Below are positions 3,433 to 34,864 of a DNA stretch of 64,000 bases, in pieces; within the stretch, counting starts at the first letter, position 1; each line of letters opens with the position of its first letter. Made by a program: the position numbers and the translations under genes. The notes below the pieces were generated by a model. That model was not told where the DNA came from, did no database searches, and worked only from the letters and a program-made list of their open reading frames with translations. The DNA lies in assembly GCA_027337125.1 (NCBI GenBank), contig GCA_027337125.1_3057.1; one strand, given 5' to 3'. This DNA is from a phage.

Positions 3433-3684
3433 ATGGAAACTTTAGTAGCAGGTTCAATTTTTATGGTTTTAGTTTCAGGTGTGTTGGCTATTATTATATA
3501 CATGCTTCCTTGGTTCATTGCCTTGATGCGTGGGTCAAAATCGACAGTAGGAATCTTTTTTACATCTTTACTGTTTAACTGGTCAATCATTGGTTGGTTT
3601 ATTACATTTATTTGGTCAATTGCGGGTGAAACTAAAAAGTCAACACAGCCAAATCAAGTAATTATCATCAGAGAGAAGGAATGA
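3433..3684 (+). CDS. imm: Immunity to superinfection membrane protein Imm (83 aa)
   Basis: 83-aa two-TM protein at the position of T4 imm between 43 and 42; GAGG RBS. Confidence 0.8.
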   Translation: METLVAGSIFMVLVSGVLAIIIYMLPWFIALMRGSKSTVGIFFTSLLFNWSIIGWFITFIWSIAGETKKSTQPNQVIIIREKE

Positions 3685-3830
3685 AAAGCAAAATTTTAGC
3701 AGTATTGCTTTTAATCTTGATGATTATAATAAGTATATACTATAGTGTAACGGTTCCTCTTATGATTCCAACTATTATTTTAGGTTGGGGTTTATTACTG
3801 TTACAAGTTAAATATGAATGTATCAATTGA
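3681..3830 (+). CDS. Small hydrophobic membrane peptide (49 aa), not in ORF track
   Basis: ATG overlaps imm stop (ATGA); uninterrupted hydrophobic ORF fills the imm-42 gap; ends just before 42 RBS. Confidence 0.4.
   Translation: MKSKILAVLLLILMIIISIYYSVTVPLMIPTIILGWGLLLLQVKYECIN
3707..3730 (+). promoter_or_regulatory. Candidate MotA-dependent middle promoter upstream of gene 42 (MotA box TGCTTTTA, -10 TATAAT 3725-3730)
   Basis: TGCTT box about 18 nt upstream of a TATAAT hexamer. Confidence 0.35.
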
Positions 3831-4578: not shown

Positions 4579-5417
4579 TTCAATTCGTAATTCCAAGCTA
4601 TCAACGTGTAGGGGCAGTTTCTGCCCTTGATATGTTTCCGACTGATTATGAACCTCATATTGTAGTACGTAAACACGAAGAAAAAGCTTATTATGACGCT
4701 TATGGGTCTAGAGCTAAAATTATAACTATTCCTGATGATGTTAATGGAATTGCTGGAACTCGTAAAGCAATTACTGATATGTATGCAGGTCAACGAATCT
4801 GGATGATTGACGATGATACTACGATTCGTATGAGTTCAATACGAAAGAGAGACGATAAACGGCGCGTAGATAAAATTAATCAATTAACTCGTGAACAGTT
4901 CTATGAATTGATTCAATACGTTGAAGATGCCATGGATTGCGGGTATTATCATGGCCATGCTCGTCTACCAATTTTTAAAATTACTTCATCTTGGGGTAAT
5001 TATCGTGAAAACTCATATGGATTCACGAATACGTGGTATGACCTCGGAAAACTTACGACAGAACAAATTGGGTATGGAAAAATTGATTTATGCGAAGATA
5101 TGTATGCATTTCTCAATTTAATTAATCAAGGTTATCCGCATTTGGCCTTGTTCAAATATCTAGTTGTATCTGGAAAATCACACGCTCCCGGTGGGTGTAG
5201 TTCAATTCGTAGTAATTCTAAACATAATAGAGCGCTTGAGCAAATCAATAGAGAGTTTCCAGAGCAAGCTCGTTGGAAAACTTCTAATATTGAAAAACGA
5301 AAATCGTTGGGTGAAGAAGATGAACCATTAAAGGTTCTTCGCATGTGTGTTTCGCGTAAAGAAAAATCAGAAGCATTTCATAAGTTTAATGCTATTCATC
5401 CAATAGCAGTTGATTAA
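4575..5417 (+). CDS. GT2-like (GT-A fold) glycosyltransferase, putative HMC-DNA sugar transferase at the beta-gt locus
   Basis: ATG overlaps gene 42 stop (ATGA); N-terminal IPSYQR and DDD (DxD) motifs typical of family 2 glycosyltransferases; 280 aa, unlike T4 beta-gt (351 aa). Confidence 0.6.
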   Translation: MIQFVIPSYQRVGAVSALDMFPTDYEPHIVVRKHEEKAYYDAYGSRAKIITIPDDVNGIAGTRKAITDMYAGQRIWMIDDDTTIRMSSIRKRDDKRRVDKINQLTREQFYELIQYVEDAMDCGYYHGHARLPIFKITSSWGNYRENSYGFTNTWYDLGKLTTEQIGYGKIDLCEDMYAFLNLINQGYPHLALFKYLVVSGKSHAPGGCSSIRSNSKHNRALEQINREFPEQARWKTSNIEKRKSLGEEDEPLKVLRMCVSRKEKSEAFHKFNAIHPIAVD

Positions 5418-5494: not shown

Positions 5495-6676
5495 ATGTCT
5501 ATTGCAGATTTAAAATCCCGTTTGATTAAAGCTTCCACTTCTAAAATGACTGCTGAACTGACTACATCTAAATTCTTTAATGAAAAGGATGTAATTCGTA
5601 CAAAAATCCCAATGCTTAATATTGCTATTTCTGGTGCGATTGATGGCGGTATGCAGTCTGGTTTAACTATTTTCGCAGGGCCTTCTAAACACTTTAAATC
5701 AAATATGTCTTTGACTATGGTTGCGGCATATTTGAACAAATATCCTGATGCAGTTTGTCTATTCTATGATAGCGAATTTGGTATTACTCCAGCTTATTTG
5801 CGATCCATGGGAGTTGACCCGGAACGAGTAATTCATACGCCAATCCAGTCAGTTGAACAGCTAAAAATTGATATGGTGAATCAGCTTGAAGCTATTGAGC
5901 GCGGTGAAAAGGTTATTGTATTCATCGACTCAATCGGTAATATGGCTTCTAAGAAAGAAACGGAAGATGCCCTGAATGAAAAATCTGTGGCAGATATGAC
6001 TCGTGCTAAATCACTGAAGTCATTATTCCGTATTGTTACTCCTTACTTTAGCATTAAAAATATTCCGTGTGTTGCGGTTAACCATACAATTGAAACAATT
6101 GAAATGTTTAGTAAAACCGTGATGACAGGTGGTACAGGCGTAATGTATTCGGCTGATACCGTATTCATTATCGGTAAACGTCAGATTAAAGATGGTTCTG
6201 ATCTTCAGGGGTATCAATTTGTTCTAAATGTAGAAAAATCTCGTACTGTTAAAGAAAAAAGTAAATTCTTTATTGATGTTAAATTTGACGGTGGTATCGA
6301 TCCTTATTCTGGATTGTTAGATATGGCTCTAGAATTAGGATTTGTAGTAAAACCTAAAAATGGCTGGTATGCTCGTGAATTTCTTGACGAAGAAACCGGC
6401 GAGATGATTCGCGAAGAAAAATCTTGGCGTGCAAAAGATACCAACTGCACTACATTCTGGGGTCCTTTATTTAAGCATCAACCATTCCGAGATGCTATTA
6501 AACGTGCTTATCAGTTAGGTGCTATTGATAGTAATGAAATTGTTGAAGCTGAAGTTGATGAATTGATTAACTCAAAGGTTGAAAAATTTAAATCTCCAGA
6601 AAGTAAAAGTAAATCAGCTGCTGATTTAGAAACTGACCTCGAGCAGTTAAGTGATATGGAAGAATTTAATGAGTAA
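5495..6676 (+). CDS. uvsX: UvsX recombinase (RecA/Rad51 family)
   Basis: Translation matches T4 UvsX; Walker A-like GPSKHFKS; 393 aa. Confidence 0.93.
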   Translation: MSIADLKSRLIKASTSKMTAELTTSKFFNEKDVIRTKIPMLNIAISGAIDGGMQSGLTIFAGPSKHFKSNMSLTMVAAYLNKYPDAVCLFYDSEFGITPAYLRSMGVDPERVIHTPIQSVEQLKIDMVNQLEAIERGEKVIVFIDSIGNMASKKETEDALNEKSVADMTRAKSLKSLFRIVTPYFSIKNIPCVAVNHTIETIEMFSKTVMTGGTGVMYSADTVFIIGKRQIKDGSDLQGYQFVLNVEKSRTVKEKSKFFIDVKFDGGIDPYSGLLDMALELGFVVKPKNGWYAREFLDEETGEMIREEKSWRAKDTNCTTFWGPLFKHQPFRDAIKRAYQLGAIDSNEIVEAEVDELINSKVEKFKSPESKSKSAADLETDLEQLSDMEEFNE

Positions 6677-29848: not shown

Positions 29849-30338
29849 CTTGACTAGTGAAATGAAGGTCAAAATTGCTGATACAGCAAGATACTCTTTA
29901 AAACAAAATCCTAATCAGGATAAAGCAGAAGTTATCGAAAGATGCCGTATTGCGGTGTACGCAGAGTTTTTTGTAGCAGATTGGCTAAGCGGATATGTTA
30001 ACAAAGGACAAGAGGATGTTAATGACCCGTATACATATGCATGGGATGTACTGGCGCATCCAAAATACTGCGGGCTTCGTGTAGAAGTCAAAACACATCA
30101 AACTGACTCACGTTGGATTTCGGTAACAACCGGATGCAGCGGAGAGTATCCATACGGTTCTGGAATAAATCTAGGGCCCATTCTGAATCACCAAGTCGCT
30201 GACTGTATAATTATATTCAACACTAAAGAAATTCATCCAGGTGTCATCAAGTACACTCCGAAGTTCATCGGTGATAGAGAAGACCTTCGTAAAGTTGTAA
30301 GAAAAAGCAACTACAACGGATGGTATCTTTCCATTTAA
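29781..30338 (+). CDS. denB: Endonuclease IV (DenB), 185 aa; start uncertain (overlaps upstream ORF by 68 nt)
   Basis: Size and position (rIIB to ndd) as T4 denB; AAAGGA RBS 8 nt upstream. Confidence 0.55.
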   Translation: MQKTNPGLQRLFQIPTFTLSNNDLTSEMKVKIADTARYSLKQNPNQDKAEVIERCRIAVYAEFFVADWLSGYVNKGQEDVNDPYTYAWDVLAHPKYCGLRVEVKTHQTDSRWISVTTGCSGEYPYGSGINLGPILNHQVADCIIIFNTKEIHPGVIKYTPKFIGDREDLRKVVRKSNYNGWYLSI

Positions 30339-30354
30339 AAATTTTCACAAAACG

Positions 30355-30385
30355 GTTTACAAACCACAAGGACTGTGGTACTATA
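30355..30385 (+). promoter_or_regulatory. Early promoter cassette (GTTTAC 30355-30360, -10 TACTAT 30380-30385)
   Basis: Near-identical to cassettes at 2711, 34138, 51432. Confidence 0.6.
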
Positions 30386-30412
30386 CAACTATCAACTGCG
30401 GAGGAGCGGAAA

Positions 30413-30676
30413 ATGAAATTTAAATTTTATTATGCTAAACATAAAATAACTGATGAGTTTGTGTCAGTTGAATATTCTAGCGATGATGAAGGTATGATTT
30501 ATACTCGCTTAGGATTATCGCATTGGGAATCTGATCAGCCTTATTTTTCAACTCCTGAAGAAATTACACGCTTAGTTAATGGTCATATGAATGACCACTG
30601 GAATGTAATTCTTTCAGATAGTCTTAAAGCGGCTATTAATAGTAATGAAATGAAAATCGCTGAGATTGAACTATGA
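30413..30676 (+). CDS. Hypothetical protein (87 aa)
   Basis: GGAGGAG RBS; ATG 30413. Confidence 0.55.
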   Translation: MKFKFYYAKHKITDEFVSVEYSSDDEGMIYTRLGLSHWESDQPYFSTPEEITRLVNGHMNDHWNVILSDSLKAAINSNEMKIAEIEL

Positions 30677-30860
30677 GTTCGTTATGGTGGTGTTTTGTTT
30701 GGTTAATTAGTATTCCAGTAATTTGTTTAACATTTACTTTTGTAATGAGGCTATTATGAAAATTTTGAATTCTGTACTTATTGCTTGTGCGTGGTGGGTT
30801 GCGCAAGTTTCGGCAGTTGTGATTGGCATTCACATTTATTACGAATATTTTTAAAAAGTG

Positions 30861-30890
30861 GTTTACAAGACTGTTCCTCTGTGGTATTAT
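30861..30890 (+). promoter_or_regulatory. Early promoter (GTTTAC 30861-30866, -10 TATTAT 30885-30890)
   Basis: Consensus early promoter. Confidence 0.55.
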
Positions 30891-30915
30891 TCTATCAACT
30901 ATGGAGGAACAGAAA

Positions 30916-31029
30916 ATGAAAAAGATTGTTAAAGCTATATGGAATGTAATTATAATTTTAGTTGTTTTGAGTATATTCCCAATCGTTTTAATGATTGATG
31001 TATTAAACGCTTACTTTGGATTTATGTGA
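30916..31029 (+). CDS. Tiny hydrophobic membrane peptide (37 aa)
   Basis: GGAGG RBS 8 nt upstream; single TM helix. Confidence 0.45.
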   Translation: MKKIVKAIWNVIIILVVLSIFPIVLMIDVLNAYFGFM

Positions 31030-31036
31030 GGAAAAC

Positions 31037-31234
31037 ATGAAGCATAAACGCAGTGCTTTTACATTTATAGAATGGTTTTTCGATAATATTTTTCCGGCTT
31101 TATTCATTTTCATGCTGATTTTTGCATTAGGTTCAGTTGTAGTTGGAATCTATTTGATGACGGTAGTCGGAATGGATATTCATCAGAATGGTTTAAAATC
31201 CGTGGTTGAAACAATTTGGAATGGTGTAAAATGA
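31037..31234 (+). CDS. Small membrane protein (65 aa)
   Basis: GAGG RBS; hydrophobic core. Confidence 0.5.
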   Translation: MKHKRSAFTFIEWFFDNIFPALFIFMLIFALGSVVVGIYLMTVVGMDIHQNGLKSVVETIWNGVK

Positions 31235-31349
31235 TGAATTTGCTGAGTGGTTGGTTTTATATTCTCATGTTTTACGTTGGTGCAAATTTTCCGTATTGGA
31301 TGGGATGGTCAACAACTGCATTTGGATTTTATACTCCCTGAGGTGAATT

Positions 31350-31565
31350 ATGAAAATTTTTAAAGATGTAAAAGTTGGCGAAATTTTTTGCTTGGATAGT
31401 GGTGATCAGTTAATTCGTATTTCACCTCTTAAGAGCACTAGCGAGAAAATGACAGTTAACGCTACTTTAGCAAACAACAGTAATGAACGTTTCTGTATTG
31501 AAAATGATACTGAAACTTATACTGTAGAAGAGTTCTGGGAATTGAGCGTCGATTGCGACGATTAA
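31350..31565 (+). CDS. Hypothetical protein (71 aa)
   Basis: GAGGTG RBS. Confidence 0.5.
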   Translation: MKIFKDVKVGEIFCLDSGDQLIRISPLKSTSEKMTVNATLANNSNERFCIENDTETYTVEEFWELSVDCDD

Positions 31566-31624
31566 TTTATTGGCCGTGTGTATTCATGCGGCCTTGGAGT
31601 AGAAAATAATTAGAGGAAATTAAT

Positions 31625-32077
31625 ATGAAATACATGACTGTTACTGATCTGAATAATGCAGGTGCTACTGTTATTGGTACAATCAAGGGTGGTGAATGGT
31701 TTTTGGGAACTCCGCACAAAGATATTTTATCTAAACCTGGATTTTACTTTTTGGTAAGTGAATTCGATGGTTCATATGGTTCATGCGTATCTGCACGATT
31801 TTATGTAGGTAATCAGCGTTCTAAGCAAGGATTCAGTGCAGTTCTAAGTCATATTCGTCAACGCCGGTCTCAACTTGCACGTACTATTGCAAATAACAAT
31901 ATGGCATACACTGTATTTTATCTGCCTTCTTCTAAGATGAAACCTCTGACGACAGGATTTGGAAAAGGTCAGTTAGCTTTGGCGTTTACTCGTAATCATC
32001 ATTCTGAGTATCAAACGCTTGAAGAAATGAACCGTATGTTGGCTGATAACTTTAAATTTGTTTTACAGGCATATTAA
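31625..32077 (+). CDS. ndd: Nucleoid disruption protein Ndd
   Basis: 150 aa; matches T4 Ndd; AGAGGA RBS. Confidence 0.85.
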
Positions 32078-32157
32078 TGAGTAATTTCCACAACGAACAC
32101 GTGATGCAGTTCTATCGTAATAATCTTAAAACTAAAGGCGTCTTCGGACGCCAGTGA
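32077..32157 (+). CDS. stp: Stp peptide (26 aa; activator of host PrrC anticodon nuclease), not in ORF track
   Basis: [26 protein letters not shown] matches T4 Stp; TAATG coupled to ndd; contains GGCGUC-UUCG-GACGCC hairpin 32137-32152. Confidence 0.8.
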
Positions 32158-32164
32158 GGAAAAT

Positions 32165-32320
32165 ATGAAATTTGTTCACGGTATAGCCTTTTTCTGTTGG
32201 TTCTTTTTATGCATCGGAACAGTAATAACTGGAGAAACTTCAGTATTTTTGCAAGCATCAGCTCAGGGCGTATTAGCGATTTTATCATTATTCGCGTACA
32301 TTGGTTCTAAAAATAGTTGA
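32165..32320 (+). CDS. ac: Ac (acridine sensitivity) membrane peptide, 51 aa, not in ORF track
   Basis: 51-aa hydrophobic peptide at ac position between stp and 52. Confidence 0.65.
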   Translation: MKFVHGIAFFCWFFLCIGTVITGETSVFLQASAQGVLAILSLFAYIGSKNS

Positions 32321-32330
32321 GGAGAATATT

Positions 32331-32489
32331 ATGAATATCGCAAAATTATTAGGAGTTATTTCATTTATTTGTTGGATAGTAGCATGTGTTTTAACTATCT
32401 GTATTGATGCCAGCAGTGTGTTTTCACAAGCTTTAGCCCAGGGTATGTGTGCATATTTAACATTTGTGTTGTTATCTACTAATGATTAA
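32331..32489 (+). CDS. Ac-like paralogous membrane peptide (52 aa)
   Basis: GAGGAG RBS; shares ICW...SVF.QA.AQG pattern with ac. Confidence 0.5.
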   Translation: MNIAKLLGVISFICWIVACVLTICIDASSVFSQALAQGMCAYLTFVLLSTND

Positions 32490-32622
32490 GAAAATCTTGG
32501 GCTATTCACTAGCCCTTGCTACTTTATTGGTAGCGTTATATTACGGAATAATGTTCGGGTTAATTCAAGTCGTGCTTTTCATTTCTGATGTTATTATGGC
32601 ACTACATTCACTAGTATGGTAA
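32482..32622 (+). CDS. Hydrophobic membrane peptide (46 aa), not in ORF track
   Basis: Uninterrupted hydrophobic ORF filling gap before gene 52. Confidence 0.35.
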   Translation: MIKKILGYSLALATLLVALYYGIMFGLIQVVLFISDVIMALHSLVW

Positions 32623-32626
32623 ATTT

Positions 32627-33955
32627 ATGCAACTGAATAATCGTGATTTAAAAAGTATCATTGATAATGAAGCATTGGCTTATGCTATGTACACGGTTGA
32701 AAATCGTGCTATCCCAAATATGATTGACGGATTTAAGCCAGTCCAACGATTTGTTATTGCTCGAGCTCTTGATTTGGCACGAGGAAATAAAGATAAGTTT
32801 CACAAACTTGCTTCTATTGCAGGTGGTGTAGCTGACCTTGGATATCATCATGGTGAAAACTCTGCACAAGATGCAGGTGCTTTGATGGCTAACACTTGGA
32901 ATAATAATTTTCCTCTGTTAGATGGTCAAGGAAACTTTGGTTCTCGTACCGTCCAAAAAGCAGCAGCAAGTCGTTATATTTTTGCTCGTGTAAGTAAAAA
33001 TTTCTATAACGTATATAAAGATACTGAATATGCTCCGGTACATCAAGATAAAGAACACATTCCGCCTGCTTTCTATTTGCCTATTATTCCTACTGTTCTT
33101 CTTAATGGCGTTTCCGGTATTGCAACTGGTTATGCAACTTACATTCTTCCTCATAGTGTTTCTTCTGTCAAGAAAGCTGTACTGCAAGCTCTTCAAGGAA
33201 AGAAAGTAACTAAACCGAAGGTAGAATTCCCAGAATTTCGTGGTGAAGTCGTTGAAATTGATGGGCAATATGAAATTCGTGGAACATATAAGTTTACTTC
33301 ACGAACTCAAATGCATATCACTGAGATTCCGTATAAGTATGATCGTGAAACTTATGTGAGTAAAATTTTAGACCCGCTTGAAGATAAAGGCTTCATTACG
33401 TGGGATGATGCTTGTGGTGAGCACGGCTTTGGCTTCAAAGTTAAATTCCGTAAAGAATACTCTTTGAGCGATAATGAAGAAGAACGACACGCAAAAATTA
33501 TGAAAGACTTCGGGTTGATTGAGCGTCGTTCTCAGAATATTACGGTTATTAATGAGAAAGGAAAACTACAAGTTTACGATAACGTAGTCGATTTAATTAA
33601 AGACTTTGTTGAAGTTCGTAAAACTTATGTCCAAAAACGAATTGATAACAAAATCAAAGAAACTGAATCAGCATTTCGTTTAGCCTTTGCCAAGGCACAT
33701 TTCATTAAGAAAGTAGTTTCAGGTGAAATCGTTGTGCAGGGTAAAACTCGCAAAGAACTGACTGAAGAACTTTCTAAAATTGATATGTATTCTTCTTATG
33801 TTGATAAACTAGTTGGTATGAATATTTTTCATATGACTTCTGATGAAGCAAAGAAACTTGCTGAAGAAGCTAAAGCTAAAAAAGAAGAAAACGAATATTG
33901 GAAAACTACTGATGTAGTTACCGAATACACCAAAGATTTAGAGGAAATCAAATGA
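32627..33955 (+). CDS. 52: DNA topoisomerase II medium subunit gp52 (GyrA-like)
   Basis: 442 aa; matches T4 gp52. Confidence 0.9.
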   Translation: MQLNNRDLKSIIDNEALAYAMYTVENRAIPNMIDGFKPVQRFVIARALDLARGNKDKFHKLASIAGGVADLGYHHGENSAQDAGALMANTWNNNFPLLDGQGNFGSRTVQKAAASRYIFARVSKNFYNVYKDTEYAPVHQDKEHIPPAFYLPIIPTVLLNGVSGIATGYATYILPHSVSSVKKAVLQALQGKKVTKPKVEFPEFRGEVVEIDGQYEIRGTYKFTSRTQMHITEIPYKYDRETYVSKILDPLEDKGFITWDDACGEHGFGFKVKFRKEYSLSDNEEERHAKIMKDFGLIERRSQNITVINEKGKLQVYDNVVDLIKDFVEVRKTYVQKRIDNKIKETESAFRLAFAKAHFIKKVVSGEIVVQGKTRKELTEELSKIDMYSSYVDKLVGMNIFHMTSDEAKKLAEEAKAKKEENEYWKTTDVVTEYTKDLEEIK

Positions 33956-34101
33956 GTCCATTCATTGGTATTACAAGCGCGGCGTTAGTATCCGGTAGCA
34001 TTTTACTGGCGGGTTTAGGCGTTGTTCCAGCCGTAGCAGGAGGTCTTCTTGCGTTCGGAATTCAACGTGTTATCATGACAGTTATCACAGTCATGCAGTA
34101 A
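33952..34101 (+). CDS. Small membrane peptide (49 aa), not in ORF track
   Basis: ATGA overlap with gene 52 stop; glycine/alanine-rich TM segment. Confidence 0.4.
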   Translation: MSPFIGITSAALVSGSILLAGLGVVPAVAGGLLAFGIQRVIMTVITVMQ

Positions 34102-34106
34102 TTTTA

Positions 34107-34134
34107 GGGAGAGCCGAGGCTCTCCCTTTTTTAT
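34107..34134 (+). terminator. Intrinsic terminator (GGGAGAGCC-gag-GGCUCUCCC + U6)
   Basis: 9-bp perfect stem and T-tract. Confidence 0.8.
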
Positions 34135-34157
34135 TTTAAAAATTTTTTCACAAAACG

Positions 34158-34187
34158 GTTTACAACCAAAGCATACTGTGGTACTAT
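34158..34187 (+). promoter_or_regulatory. Early promoter cassette for motA (GTTTAC 34158-34163, -10 TACTAT 34182-34187)
   Basis: Near-identical copy of the repeated promoter cassette. Confidence 0.65.
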
Positions 34188-34228
34188 ACAACTATCAACT
34201 ACTGATACAGAATTACGGAGATTAGAAA

Positions 34229-34864
34229 ATGTCTAAAGTAACTTACATCATCAAAGCTTCTAACGATGTTCTGAATGAAAAAACTGCTGCGATTTTAATT
34301 ACCATTGCTAAGAAAGATTTCATTACAGCTGCAGAAGTTCGTGAGGTGCATCCAGATTTAGGTAATGCAGTAGTTAATAGTAATATTGGGGTATTGATTA
34401 AAAAAGGCCTGGTGGAGAAATCTGGTGATGGATTAATCATTACTGGTGAAGCTCAGGATATTATTTCAAATGCAGCAACTTTATACGCGCAAGAAAACGC
34501 TCCTGAACTGCTGAAAAAACGAGCAACTCGTAAAGCTCGCGAGATTACTTCTGATATGGAAGAAGATAAAGACCTCATGTTAAAACTGCTAGATGAAAAT
34601 GGATTTGTTCTTAAAAAGGTTGAAACTTACCGCAGTAACTATCTTGCTATTTTAGAAAAACGCACTCACGGAATTCGCAATTTTGAAATTAACAATAATG
34701 GAAACATGCGAATTTTTGGATACAAAATGATGGAACATCATATTCAGAAATTTACTGACATCGGAATGTCATGTAAAATCGCTAAAAACGGTAATGTGTA
34801 TCTTGACATTAAACGCTCGGTAGAAAACATTGAAGCTGTAATCACTGTAGCATCTGAACTGTGA
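34229..34864 (+). CDS. motA: MotA middle-transcription activator
   Basis: 211 aa; matches T4 MotA. Confidence 0.92.
   Translation: MSKVTYIIKASNDVLNEKTAAILITIAKKDFITAAEVREVHPDLGNAVVNSNIGVLIKKGLVEKSGDGLIITGEAQDIISNAATLYAQENAPELLKKRATRKAREITSDMEEDKDLMLKLLDENGFVLKKVETYRSNYLAILEKRTHGIRNFEINNNGNMRIFGYKMMEHHIQKFTDIGMSCKIAKNGNVYLDIKRSVENIEAVITVASEL

Follow-up and report, generated by a model that had tools for sequence, protein, structure and literature searches.

Small early genes of the denB-ndd-52-motA region in a T4-like phage: known genes, mostly for predicted inner-membrane peptides, with a second ac-family gene as the departure from T4

Small genes between denB and motA

A first-pass annotation of a 64,000-nucleotide (nt) stretch of phage DNA (NCBI GenBank assembly GCA_027337125.1, contig GCA_027337125.1_3057.1; the whole stretch is referred to below as the window) had singled out a cluster of tiny hydrophobic peptide genes that included a tandem duplication of ac. 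The segment concerned (30.3-34.2 kb) belongs to a Tequatrovirus (T4-like phage), of which it forms the denB-ndd-52-motA early region. Used as a megablast query, positions 30300-34400 of the window matched 897 phage records; the best matches are Tequatrovirus genomes, ~96% identical over the full length, and identity to many Tequatrovirus genomes is 93-96%. The plus strand of the window keeps the gene order of the T4 RefSeq record, which runs denB, ndd.6, ndd.5, ndd.4, ndd.3, ndd.2a, ndd.2, ndd.1, ndd, stp, ac, 52.1, 52, motA.1 and motA. The small open reading frames (ORFs) that had been listed are all present, with ATG starts and stops. As judged by sequence match, they are the known T4 genes ndd.6, ndd.5, ndd.4, ndd.2, stp, ac, 52.1 and motA.1; against the T4 annotation, identity of the individual products extends from 33/37 (ndd.4) up to 49/49 (MotA.1). 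The small genes, with product lengths in amino acids (aa), are as follows.

30673..30759, + strand: ndd.6, 28 aa, one hydrophobic segment; 28/28 residues identical to T4 Ndd.6; PHROG 8851
30756..30854, + strand: ndd.5, 32-aa hydrophobic peptide; 31/32 against T4 Ndd.5; PHROG 5011
30916..31029, + strand: ndd.4, 37-aa predicted single-pass peptide with a basic N-terminus; 33/37 against T4 Ndd.4; PHROG 3098
31037..31234, + strand: intact gene for a predicted 65-aa membrane protein (T4 'ndd.3' plus 'ndd.2a'); Pfam DUF7248; PHROG 2401
31231..31341, + strand: ndd.2, 36 aa, aromatic-rich and without a charged residue; 34/36 against T4 Ndd.2; PHROG 4135
32077..32157, + strand: stp, 26-aa hydrophilic peptide; 26/26 against T4 Stp; PF08133 'Anticodon nuclease activator', 75.3 bits (cut-off 25)
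32165..32320, + strand: ac-1, extra ac-family gene, 51 aa; 18 identical residues in 54 columns against T4 Ac; PHROG 2501
32331..32489, + strand: ac-2, T4 ac ortholog, 52 aa, extra-threonine variant; 51/52 against T4 Ac; PHROG 2501
32482..32622, + strand: 52.1, predicted 46-aa membrane peptide; 44/46 against T4 gp52.1; Pfam DUF7396, 80.1 bits (cut-off 27), residues 1-46 of 46
33952..34101, + strand: motA.1, 49-aa Gly/Ala/Val-rich hydrophobic peptide; 49/49 against T4 MotA.1; PHROG 3487; ATGA overlap with gene 52

In profile searches all of the peptides match existing PHROGs along their whole length. Ndd.6, Ndd.5, Ndd.4, Ndd.2 and MotA.1 do so, against PHROGs 8851, 5011, 3098, 4135 and 3487, with E values from 1.6e-17 to 2.2e-31 and the whole peptide covered, and the Pfam cut-offs are passed by Stp (PF08133), 52.1 (DUF7396) and the 65-aa protein (DUF7248). 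The cluster is already known, in that every listed ORF is an annotated T4 gene in an existing PHROG or Pfam family. The observation is thus correct and the biology ordinary, these genes having stood in the T4 annotation for decades. According to a recent preprint, which cites the T4 genome review, ac lies in one of three T4 gene clusters of predicted membrane proteins (10.1101/2025.06.30.662393).

The small genes form a densely packed, translationally coupled string on one strand, with the same order, strand and coupling as the T4 cluster of small membrane ORFs. ATGA overlaps couple the starts at 30673, 30756, 31231 and 33952, and a TAATG overlap joins the ndd stop to the stp start at 32077. 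The genes ac-2 and 52.1 overlap by 8 nt, the same as in T4, and 4 nt separate the 52.1 stop from the gene 52 start. GAGGA-type Shine-Dalgarno sites precede the starts at 30916, 31037, 32165 and 32331. Coupling and good ribosome-binding sites were seen as the first-pass annotation had described. A program-made ORF list gives longer forms with TTG starts for ndd.5 (30723..30854), ndd.4 (30823..31029), ac-2 (32301..32489) and 52.1 (32464..32622); the shorter ATG starts adopted here have Shine-Dalgarno sites or start-stop overlaps in their favor and agree with how relatives are annotated. The T4 record places the ndd.4 start 5 codons further upstream (42 aa). A GGAGGA lies 8 nt before the window ATG at 30916; the T4 form is probably 5 codons too long and 37 aa the better reading.

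The string as first proposed was incomplete, for it omitted the 65-aa hydrophobic ORF at 31037..31234. The predicted product matches DUF7248 with 70.6 bits (cut-off 27) over profile positions 4-57 of 58, and such a near-full match indicates that 65 aa is the normal length of the family. In T4 (5925-6140, minus strand) a 1-nt deletion just after the ATG of this gene has led to the annotation of an out-of-frame 'ndd.3' and of an 'ndd.2a' that begins at an internal ATG; in T2 (2400-2615) a TCA codon has become the nonsense codon TAA. The gene is intact in the window phage and in wild isolates. Read in this alignment, 'ndd.3' and 'ndd.2a' of T4 make up one 65-aa gene that a frameshift has split in two; in the window it is a single intact gene. 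Recognition of the two T4 entries as one gene is of practical value.

Coding capacity and conservation of the small frames

Frames this short might be untranslated products of chance in AT-rich intergenic DNA. T-rich codons easily yield hydrophobic pseudo-peptides, many spurious ORFs of similar length occur in the other frames of the region, and shotgun proteomics of T4 detected none of these peptides (Class_P = NA for all; PMC9697503, Table S2). We compared the tiling of same-strand ATG-initiated ORFs of at least 25 aa with that in 1000 dinucleotide shuffles. Such ORFs cover 0.92 of the interval 30673..31341 and 0.97 of 32077..32622, against shuffle means of 0.35 and 0.27, respectively. None of the 1000 shuffles came up to the real sequence in coverage or in its count of hydrophobic ORFs.

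Comparison within the genus was made on eight Tequatrovirus sequences, namely the window and seven further loci. The orthologs are intact and of equal length throughout, the only departures being in the laboratory strains T4 and T2, at ac and at the 65-aa gene. Variable columns, when pooled, are spread 29/12/67 over codon positions 1/2/3 (p = 2.7e-10), and pairwise ratios of nonsynonymous to synonymous substitution rates (dN/dS), which are far under 1, lie mostly between 0 and 0.3. Individual genes follow the same pattern: ndd.6 has a dN/dS of 0-0.14 among close relatives, ndd.5 has variable columns of 2/0/10 and a dN/dS of 0.02-0.08, the 65-aa gene has columns of 3/2/16, ndd.2 has a dN/dS of 0-0.1 against most relatives, and motA.1 combines columns of 5/3/17 with a dN/dS of 0-0.21.

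Several frames can be followed beyond Tequatrovirus, where synonymous sites are saturated. Ndd.6, Ndd.4, the DUF7248 protein, Ac and 52.1 have syntenic counterparts, with identities of 29-89%, in some or all of six other Tevenvirinae genera (Gaprivervirus, Dhakavirus, Mosigvirus, Jiaodavirus, Karamvirus and Gelderlandvirus). Homologs of Ndd.6 (44-50% identity) were found in Gaprivervirus, Mosigvirus, Dhakavirus and Gelderlandvirus; Ndd.4 is 61% identical in Gaprivervirus and Dhakavirus and 39% in Karamvirus; the 65-aa protein has homologs in Gaprivervirus, Jiaodavirus and Karamvirus; and 52.1 is 54-89% identical in Dhakavirus, Gaprivervirus, Mosigvirus and Jiaodavirus, each time immediately 5' of gene 52. 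Ndd.2 gave one weak match outside its genus, in Karamvirus (39% identity, E = 4e-4), and among the sampled genera Ndd.5 and MotA.1 found no match outside Tequatrovirus.

The tiling in excess of shuffles, the surplus of third-position changes, the low dN/dS and the retention of frames across genera together indicate that, by these comparative measures, the small ORFs are genuine protein-coding genes under purifying selection. Frames that persist at 30-60% amino-acid identity across genera in which synonymous sites are saturated are not what chance would leave, and two of the genes, ac and stp, have published genetics. The comparative data effectively refute the notion of chance ORFs, which we rejected as scarcely credible. 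Conservation of the frames in related phages was the check that the first-pass annotation had set for itself, and the frames are kept.

As for expression, ndd.2 to ndd.6, stp, ac, 52.1 and motA.1 have 'early'-class transcripts in T4, and the Ndd.1 protein was detected early by proteomics (PMC9697503, Table S2). Failure to detect the other products is expected of tiny hydrophobic peptides, and at the protein level their translation is a prediction. Literature searches on T4 ribosome profiling or small proteins gave nothing specific to these peptides, those made by gene name (ndd.2 to ndd.6, motA.1) brought up nothing but papers on neurodevelopmental disorders (abbreviated 'NDD'), and the main text of the CRISPRi-ART study of T4 makes no mention of these genes.

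The two ac-family genes

T4 has one ac gene and the window phage has two: the order stp, ac, 52.1 of T4 and RB32 is replaced by stp, ac-1, ac-2, 52.1. In the first-pass annotation the labels were reversed, the gene at 32331..32489 being described as an ac-like paralog. That gene, ac-2, differs from T4 Ac at one of 52 residues and lies just upstream of 52.1; the extra copy is ac-1, at 32165..32320. Settling which copy is the true ac ortholog is likewise of practical value. Both genes belong to PHROG 2501, with E = 4.9e-26 for ac-1 (residues 1-50) and E = 3.7e-25 for ac-2 (residues 1-51). A local Pfam search gave no hit for either copy, and PF26944.1 is listed on two Ac homologs in a large protein database. 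The family is tiny: among 1.84 billion representative proteins only seven matched at E <= 1e-3, one of them a weak, local match (E = 2.2e-4) to an unrelated protein of 859 aa, and this search found no distant or cellular relatives.

The second ac-family gene, which our title singles out as the departure from T4 itself, is carried by about a tenth of related phages. By tblastn, 463 phage records have a T4-type ac and 48 have an ac-1 type that is at least 95% identical; when the pair was used as a blastn query, 51 of 502 matching phage records covered at least 80% of it. The tandem pair is already in public GenBank annotation, 'acridine resistance' being annotated twice in records such as ADUt, vB_Eco_Geo and T4_ev151.

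Did the pair arise by a recent duplication in place? The genes lie side by side on one strand, their lengths are similar, each is preceded by a GAGGA ribosome-binding site, and they share a PHROG. However, ac-1 and ac-2 are identical at only 41% of residues and at 84 of 165 aligned bases (~51%). Moreover, ac-1 is far nearer to the single ac of other phages than to its neighbor: it is 72% identical to the ac of RB32 and 76% to that of RB68, and identities across the single ac genes of RB32, RB68 and a Gaprivervirus are 72-79%. RB32 and RB68 carry no ac other than one of the ac-1 type, and the RB32 record describes its ac as 'more similar to RB69'. The 3' ends differ too: ac-1 closes with KNS and a stop of its own, T4 Ac with an ND that overlaps the 52.1 start; the ac-1 end, AAAAATAGTTGA, seems to have come from the overlap of ac with 52.1, AAAAATGATTAA, in RB32/RB68-type phages. 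Given this divergence and the affinity of ac-1 to single-copy alleles, we rejected a recent duplication, which is very improbable. In these comparisons the pair is one of old, divergent paralogs or alleles, with ac-1 in the RB32/RB68 allele group.

Some phages bear apparent traces of ac-1 loss. The junction between stp and the single ac is clean in T4, G4498 and RB32. T2 and SHFML-11 keep the last ~30 nt of ac-1 (the GSKNS tail plus spacer) fused to a truncated stp, and their Stp C-terminus is altered as a result of that arrangement; this remnant suggests deletion from a tandem ancestor, at least in that lineage. In SHFML-11 (532-630) stp reads in frame into the ac-1 tail GSKNS. Separately, the ac gene of the T2 RefSeq record (3459-3712) has a nonsense codon at position 11, the annotated ORF being only 13 aa. 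In T4_ev151, ac-1 (1873-2028) is mosaic in its 5' third, with 10 base changes in the first 57 nt that affect 6 codons non-synonymously and the remainder identical.

These traces bear on whether ac-1 still does anything. It could be redundant, left behind when phages with different ac alleles recombined or as a relic of an ancestral tandem state, and now be on its way to loss without adding any function. Consistent with this are the small share of records with the tandem arrangement and the remnants in T2 and SHFML-11. A further sign is a 1-nt deletion in the ac-1 of BCH953P4 (401-552), and the dN/dS of ac-1 against its nearest alleles (0.37-0.43) is somewhat relaxed; both findings count against a working ac-1. 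The BCH953P4 deletion falls in a T5 run, so that it may be a real frameshift or a sequencing error. Against the leftover explanation, ac-1 is intact and has its own Shine-Dalgarno site, the copies at least 95% identical to it come from several hosts and countries, and it conserves the motif around a functionally critical glycine. We regard a functionless leftover as unlikely, if not greatly so.

A further reading takes the ac-1/ac-2 tandem as the older Tequatrovirus state, from which T4 would have lost ac-1 and RB32/RB68 ac-2, and in which T2 and SHFML-11 would have fused stp to the ac-1 tail. The paralogs would then be specialised for different host membrane targets, such as resistance-nodulation-division (RND) pumps or pump alleles. 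We give this scenario little credence. Were it true, possession of both copies would widen the host range for efflux or envelope subversion.

What the two copies have in common favors activity of both. Ac-1 shares with T4 Ac its length class, a predicted two-helix hairpin, a CW motif in helix 1 and the motif SVFxQAxAQG, which both window copies keep. In T4 Ac the substitution G38R abolishes function (10.1101/2025.06.30.662393); the critical glycine of AQG aligns as G35 in ac-1 and G38 in ac-2. Window ac-2 is the extra-threonine variant described in the same preprint, where it behaves as wild type. The best reading is that both copies are active inner-membrane hairpins that raise intracellular acridine. 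We think it fairly probable that both are functional and act alike, possibly with differing target preference.

Predicted membrane peptides and their surroundings

The description of the small ORFs as a hydrophobic string holds for most of them. The best 19-residue Kyte-Doolittle window scores at least 2.15 in seven of the eight listed peptides other than Stp; the exceptions are Ndd.2 (1.16) and the hydrophilic Stp itself (grand average of hydropathy, -1.03), identical to that of T4 and in the same place after ndd, which by this property stands apart from the hydrophobic peptides. A single strongly hydrophobic segment marks each of Ndd.6, Ndd.5, Ndd.4 and the 65-aa protein, which would form single-pass helices in the host inner membrane. 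Each Ac copy has two hydrophobic uncharged segments. An AlphaFold2 model of ac-1, built on the Ac alignment, has helices at residues 2-22 and 27-50 separated by a turn at 23-26 (mean predicted local distance difference test score, 75.8), a model in which Ac would lie in the inner membrane as a helical hairpin. The single long uncharged stretch of 52.1 and that of MotA.1 could be one helix or two. Searches of PDB sequences found nothing for the Ac profile or for 52.1, and for the 65-aa protein one insignificant hit (E = 0.15). Except for soluble Stp and weakly hydrophobic Ndd.2, the peptides would be inserted into the inner membrane within minutes of infection.

For Ac there is published genetics. 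Deletion of ac confers resistance to acriflavine, and E. coli cells that express Ac become more sensitive to acriflavine and to ampicillin; the authors propose that Ac obstructs AcrAB-TolC efflux (10.1101/2025.06.30.662393). A 2026 PNAS paper repeats this proposal as an assumption, and an older reading of Ac action is that it raises membrane permeability. By whichever route, Ac raises intracellular acridine and so renders the phage acridine-sensitive.

A ~50-aa inner-membrane peptide like Ac is found in E. coli itself: AcrZ (49 aa), which binds AcrB, and which we cite as a functional analogy only. AcrZ is a single helix and enhances export of some substrates, whereas Ac is modelled as a hairpin and is proposed to block export. 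BLASTP of Ac against AcrZ aligned nothing at E <= 100. That AcrZ modulates an RND efflux pump has been demonstrated (PMC7267776); for Ac such an action is proposed.

The first-pass annotation had suggested that small membrane peptides of this kind modulate host membrane proteins or defenses. Published support exists for Ac, through acridine sensitivity, and for Stp, which Pfam and T4 annotations give as an activator of the host PrrC anticodon nuclease, but which is soluble. For the ndd.x peptides, 52.1 and MotA.1 the suggestion goes beyond published work; we give about even chances to the idea that these peptides bind and modulate host envelope proteins during takeover.

Altogether, the data make it very probable that these are the known small early genes of T4 and that most encode inner-membrane peptides. 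Besides the silence of the T4 proteome and the signs of decay in ac-1 noted above, the following points weigh against that reading. Published function is limited to Stp and Ac. The AcrAB-TolC model is a preprint proposal (10.1101/2025.06.30.662393). Ndd.2, aromatic-rich and uncharged, has no convincing transmembrane segment. Finally, the 65-aa gene has been lost from both laboratory strains, T4 and T2, and ac from T2 as well, losses which imply that both genes are dispensable in standard culture. Purifying selection across several T-even genera nonetheless makes the unstudied peptides reasonable targets for functional work on small proteins, the proposed link of Ac to efflux pumps being one example of a subject for it.

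The two genes that flank gene 52 and are translationally coupled to it invite a different idea, namely that 52.1 and MotA.1 act not on host proteins but as membrane anchors for the T4 topoisomerase or replication complex. 52.1 lies immediately 5' of gene 52 in all seven genera examined, with a strongly conserved C-terminal motif, and Tequatrovirus, Gaprivervirus and Dhakavirus each have a small hydrophobic ORF that overlaps the gene 52 stop. In the RB32 record gp52 is described as 'membrane-associated', and acridine-resistance mutations also map to the topoisomerase genes 39 and 60, according to the preprint on Ac (10.1101/2025.06.30.662393). Synteny in a compact phage operon is, however, a weak sign of physical partnership, and the peptides 3' of gene 52 in other genera have no detectable similarity to MotA.1. 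A tether seems quite improbable.

The ORFs over the gene 52 stop in Gaprivervirus (MN01 5201-5299) and Dhakavirus (MX01 5153-5257) encode predicted single-pass hydrophobic peptides of 32-34 aa; by location they are positional analogues of motA.1, with no sequence similarity that we could detect. In Jiaodavirus (3444-3617), Karamvirus (1850-2032) and Gelderlandvirus (2650-2832) an extra conserved hydrophobic protein of 57-60 aa with two segments is encoded beside ac and 52.1; it starts MSPFKQIW in Karamvirus and Gelderlandvirus. No counterpart was found in Tequatrovirus.

The remaining features of the region are listed below.

30356..30384, + strand: early-promoter-like cassette 1, TTTACA-17-TACTAT with an upstream TG; 5' of the unit formed by the 87-aa ORF, ndd.6 and ndd.5
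30413..30676, + strand: 87-aa hydrophilic ORF; PHROG 2390, E = 1.3e-46; its stop overlaps the ndd.6 start
30862..30890, + strand: early-promoter-like cassette 2, 5' of ndd.4; TTTACA-17-TATTAT with an upstream TG; 10/12 matches
31350..31565, + strand: ndd.1, 71-aa soluble protein (context); 68/71 against T4 Ndd.1; PHROG 2183
31625..32077, + strand: ndd, nucleoid disruption protein (context); 139 identical residues in 151 columns against T4 Ndd; annotated as ndd in related records
32627..33955, + strand: gene 52, topoisomerase II medium subunit (context); gene 52 is annotated at the equivalent position in T4 and relatives
34106..34127, + strand: intrinsic-terminator-like hairpin after motA.1; 9-bp stem with 6 G-C pairs, then TTTTTTATTTT

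Before ndd.6 the window has the 87-aa ORF, for which no T4 counterpart was found. This ORF is 96-100% identical in ADUt, Kha5h, SsoM_113 and G4498 and 67% identical in a Mosigvirus. The slot between denB and ndd.6 is variable in content: some Tequatroviruses have the 87-aa ORF there, T2 and RB32 carry a different gene of 68 aa, and some phages have both.

The string of small genes lies behind two early-promoter-like cassettes and stops at the strong terminator that follows motA.1; terminators are annotated at the position matching 34106..34127 in Kha5h and G4498. Three cassettes of ~80 nt align with one another, at 30335-30415 (before the 87-aa ORF), 30841-30918 (before ndd.4) and 34138-34231 (before motA). 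They have in common GGTTTACA, a 17-nt spacer, TGTGGTA(C/T)TAT and CTATCAACT, a pattern of the T4 early-promoter type. Lying near-alike within 3.9 kb, the three cassettes could act as recombination points for the swapping of modules.

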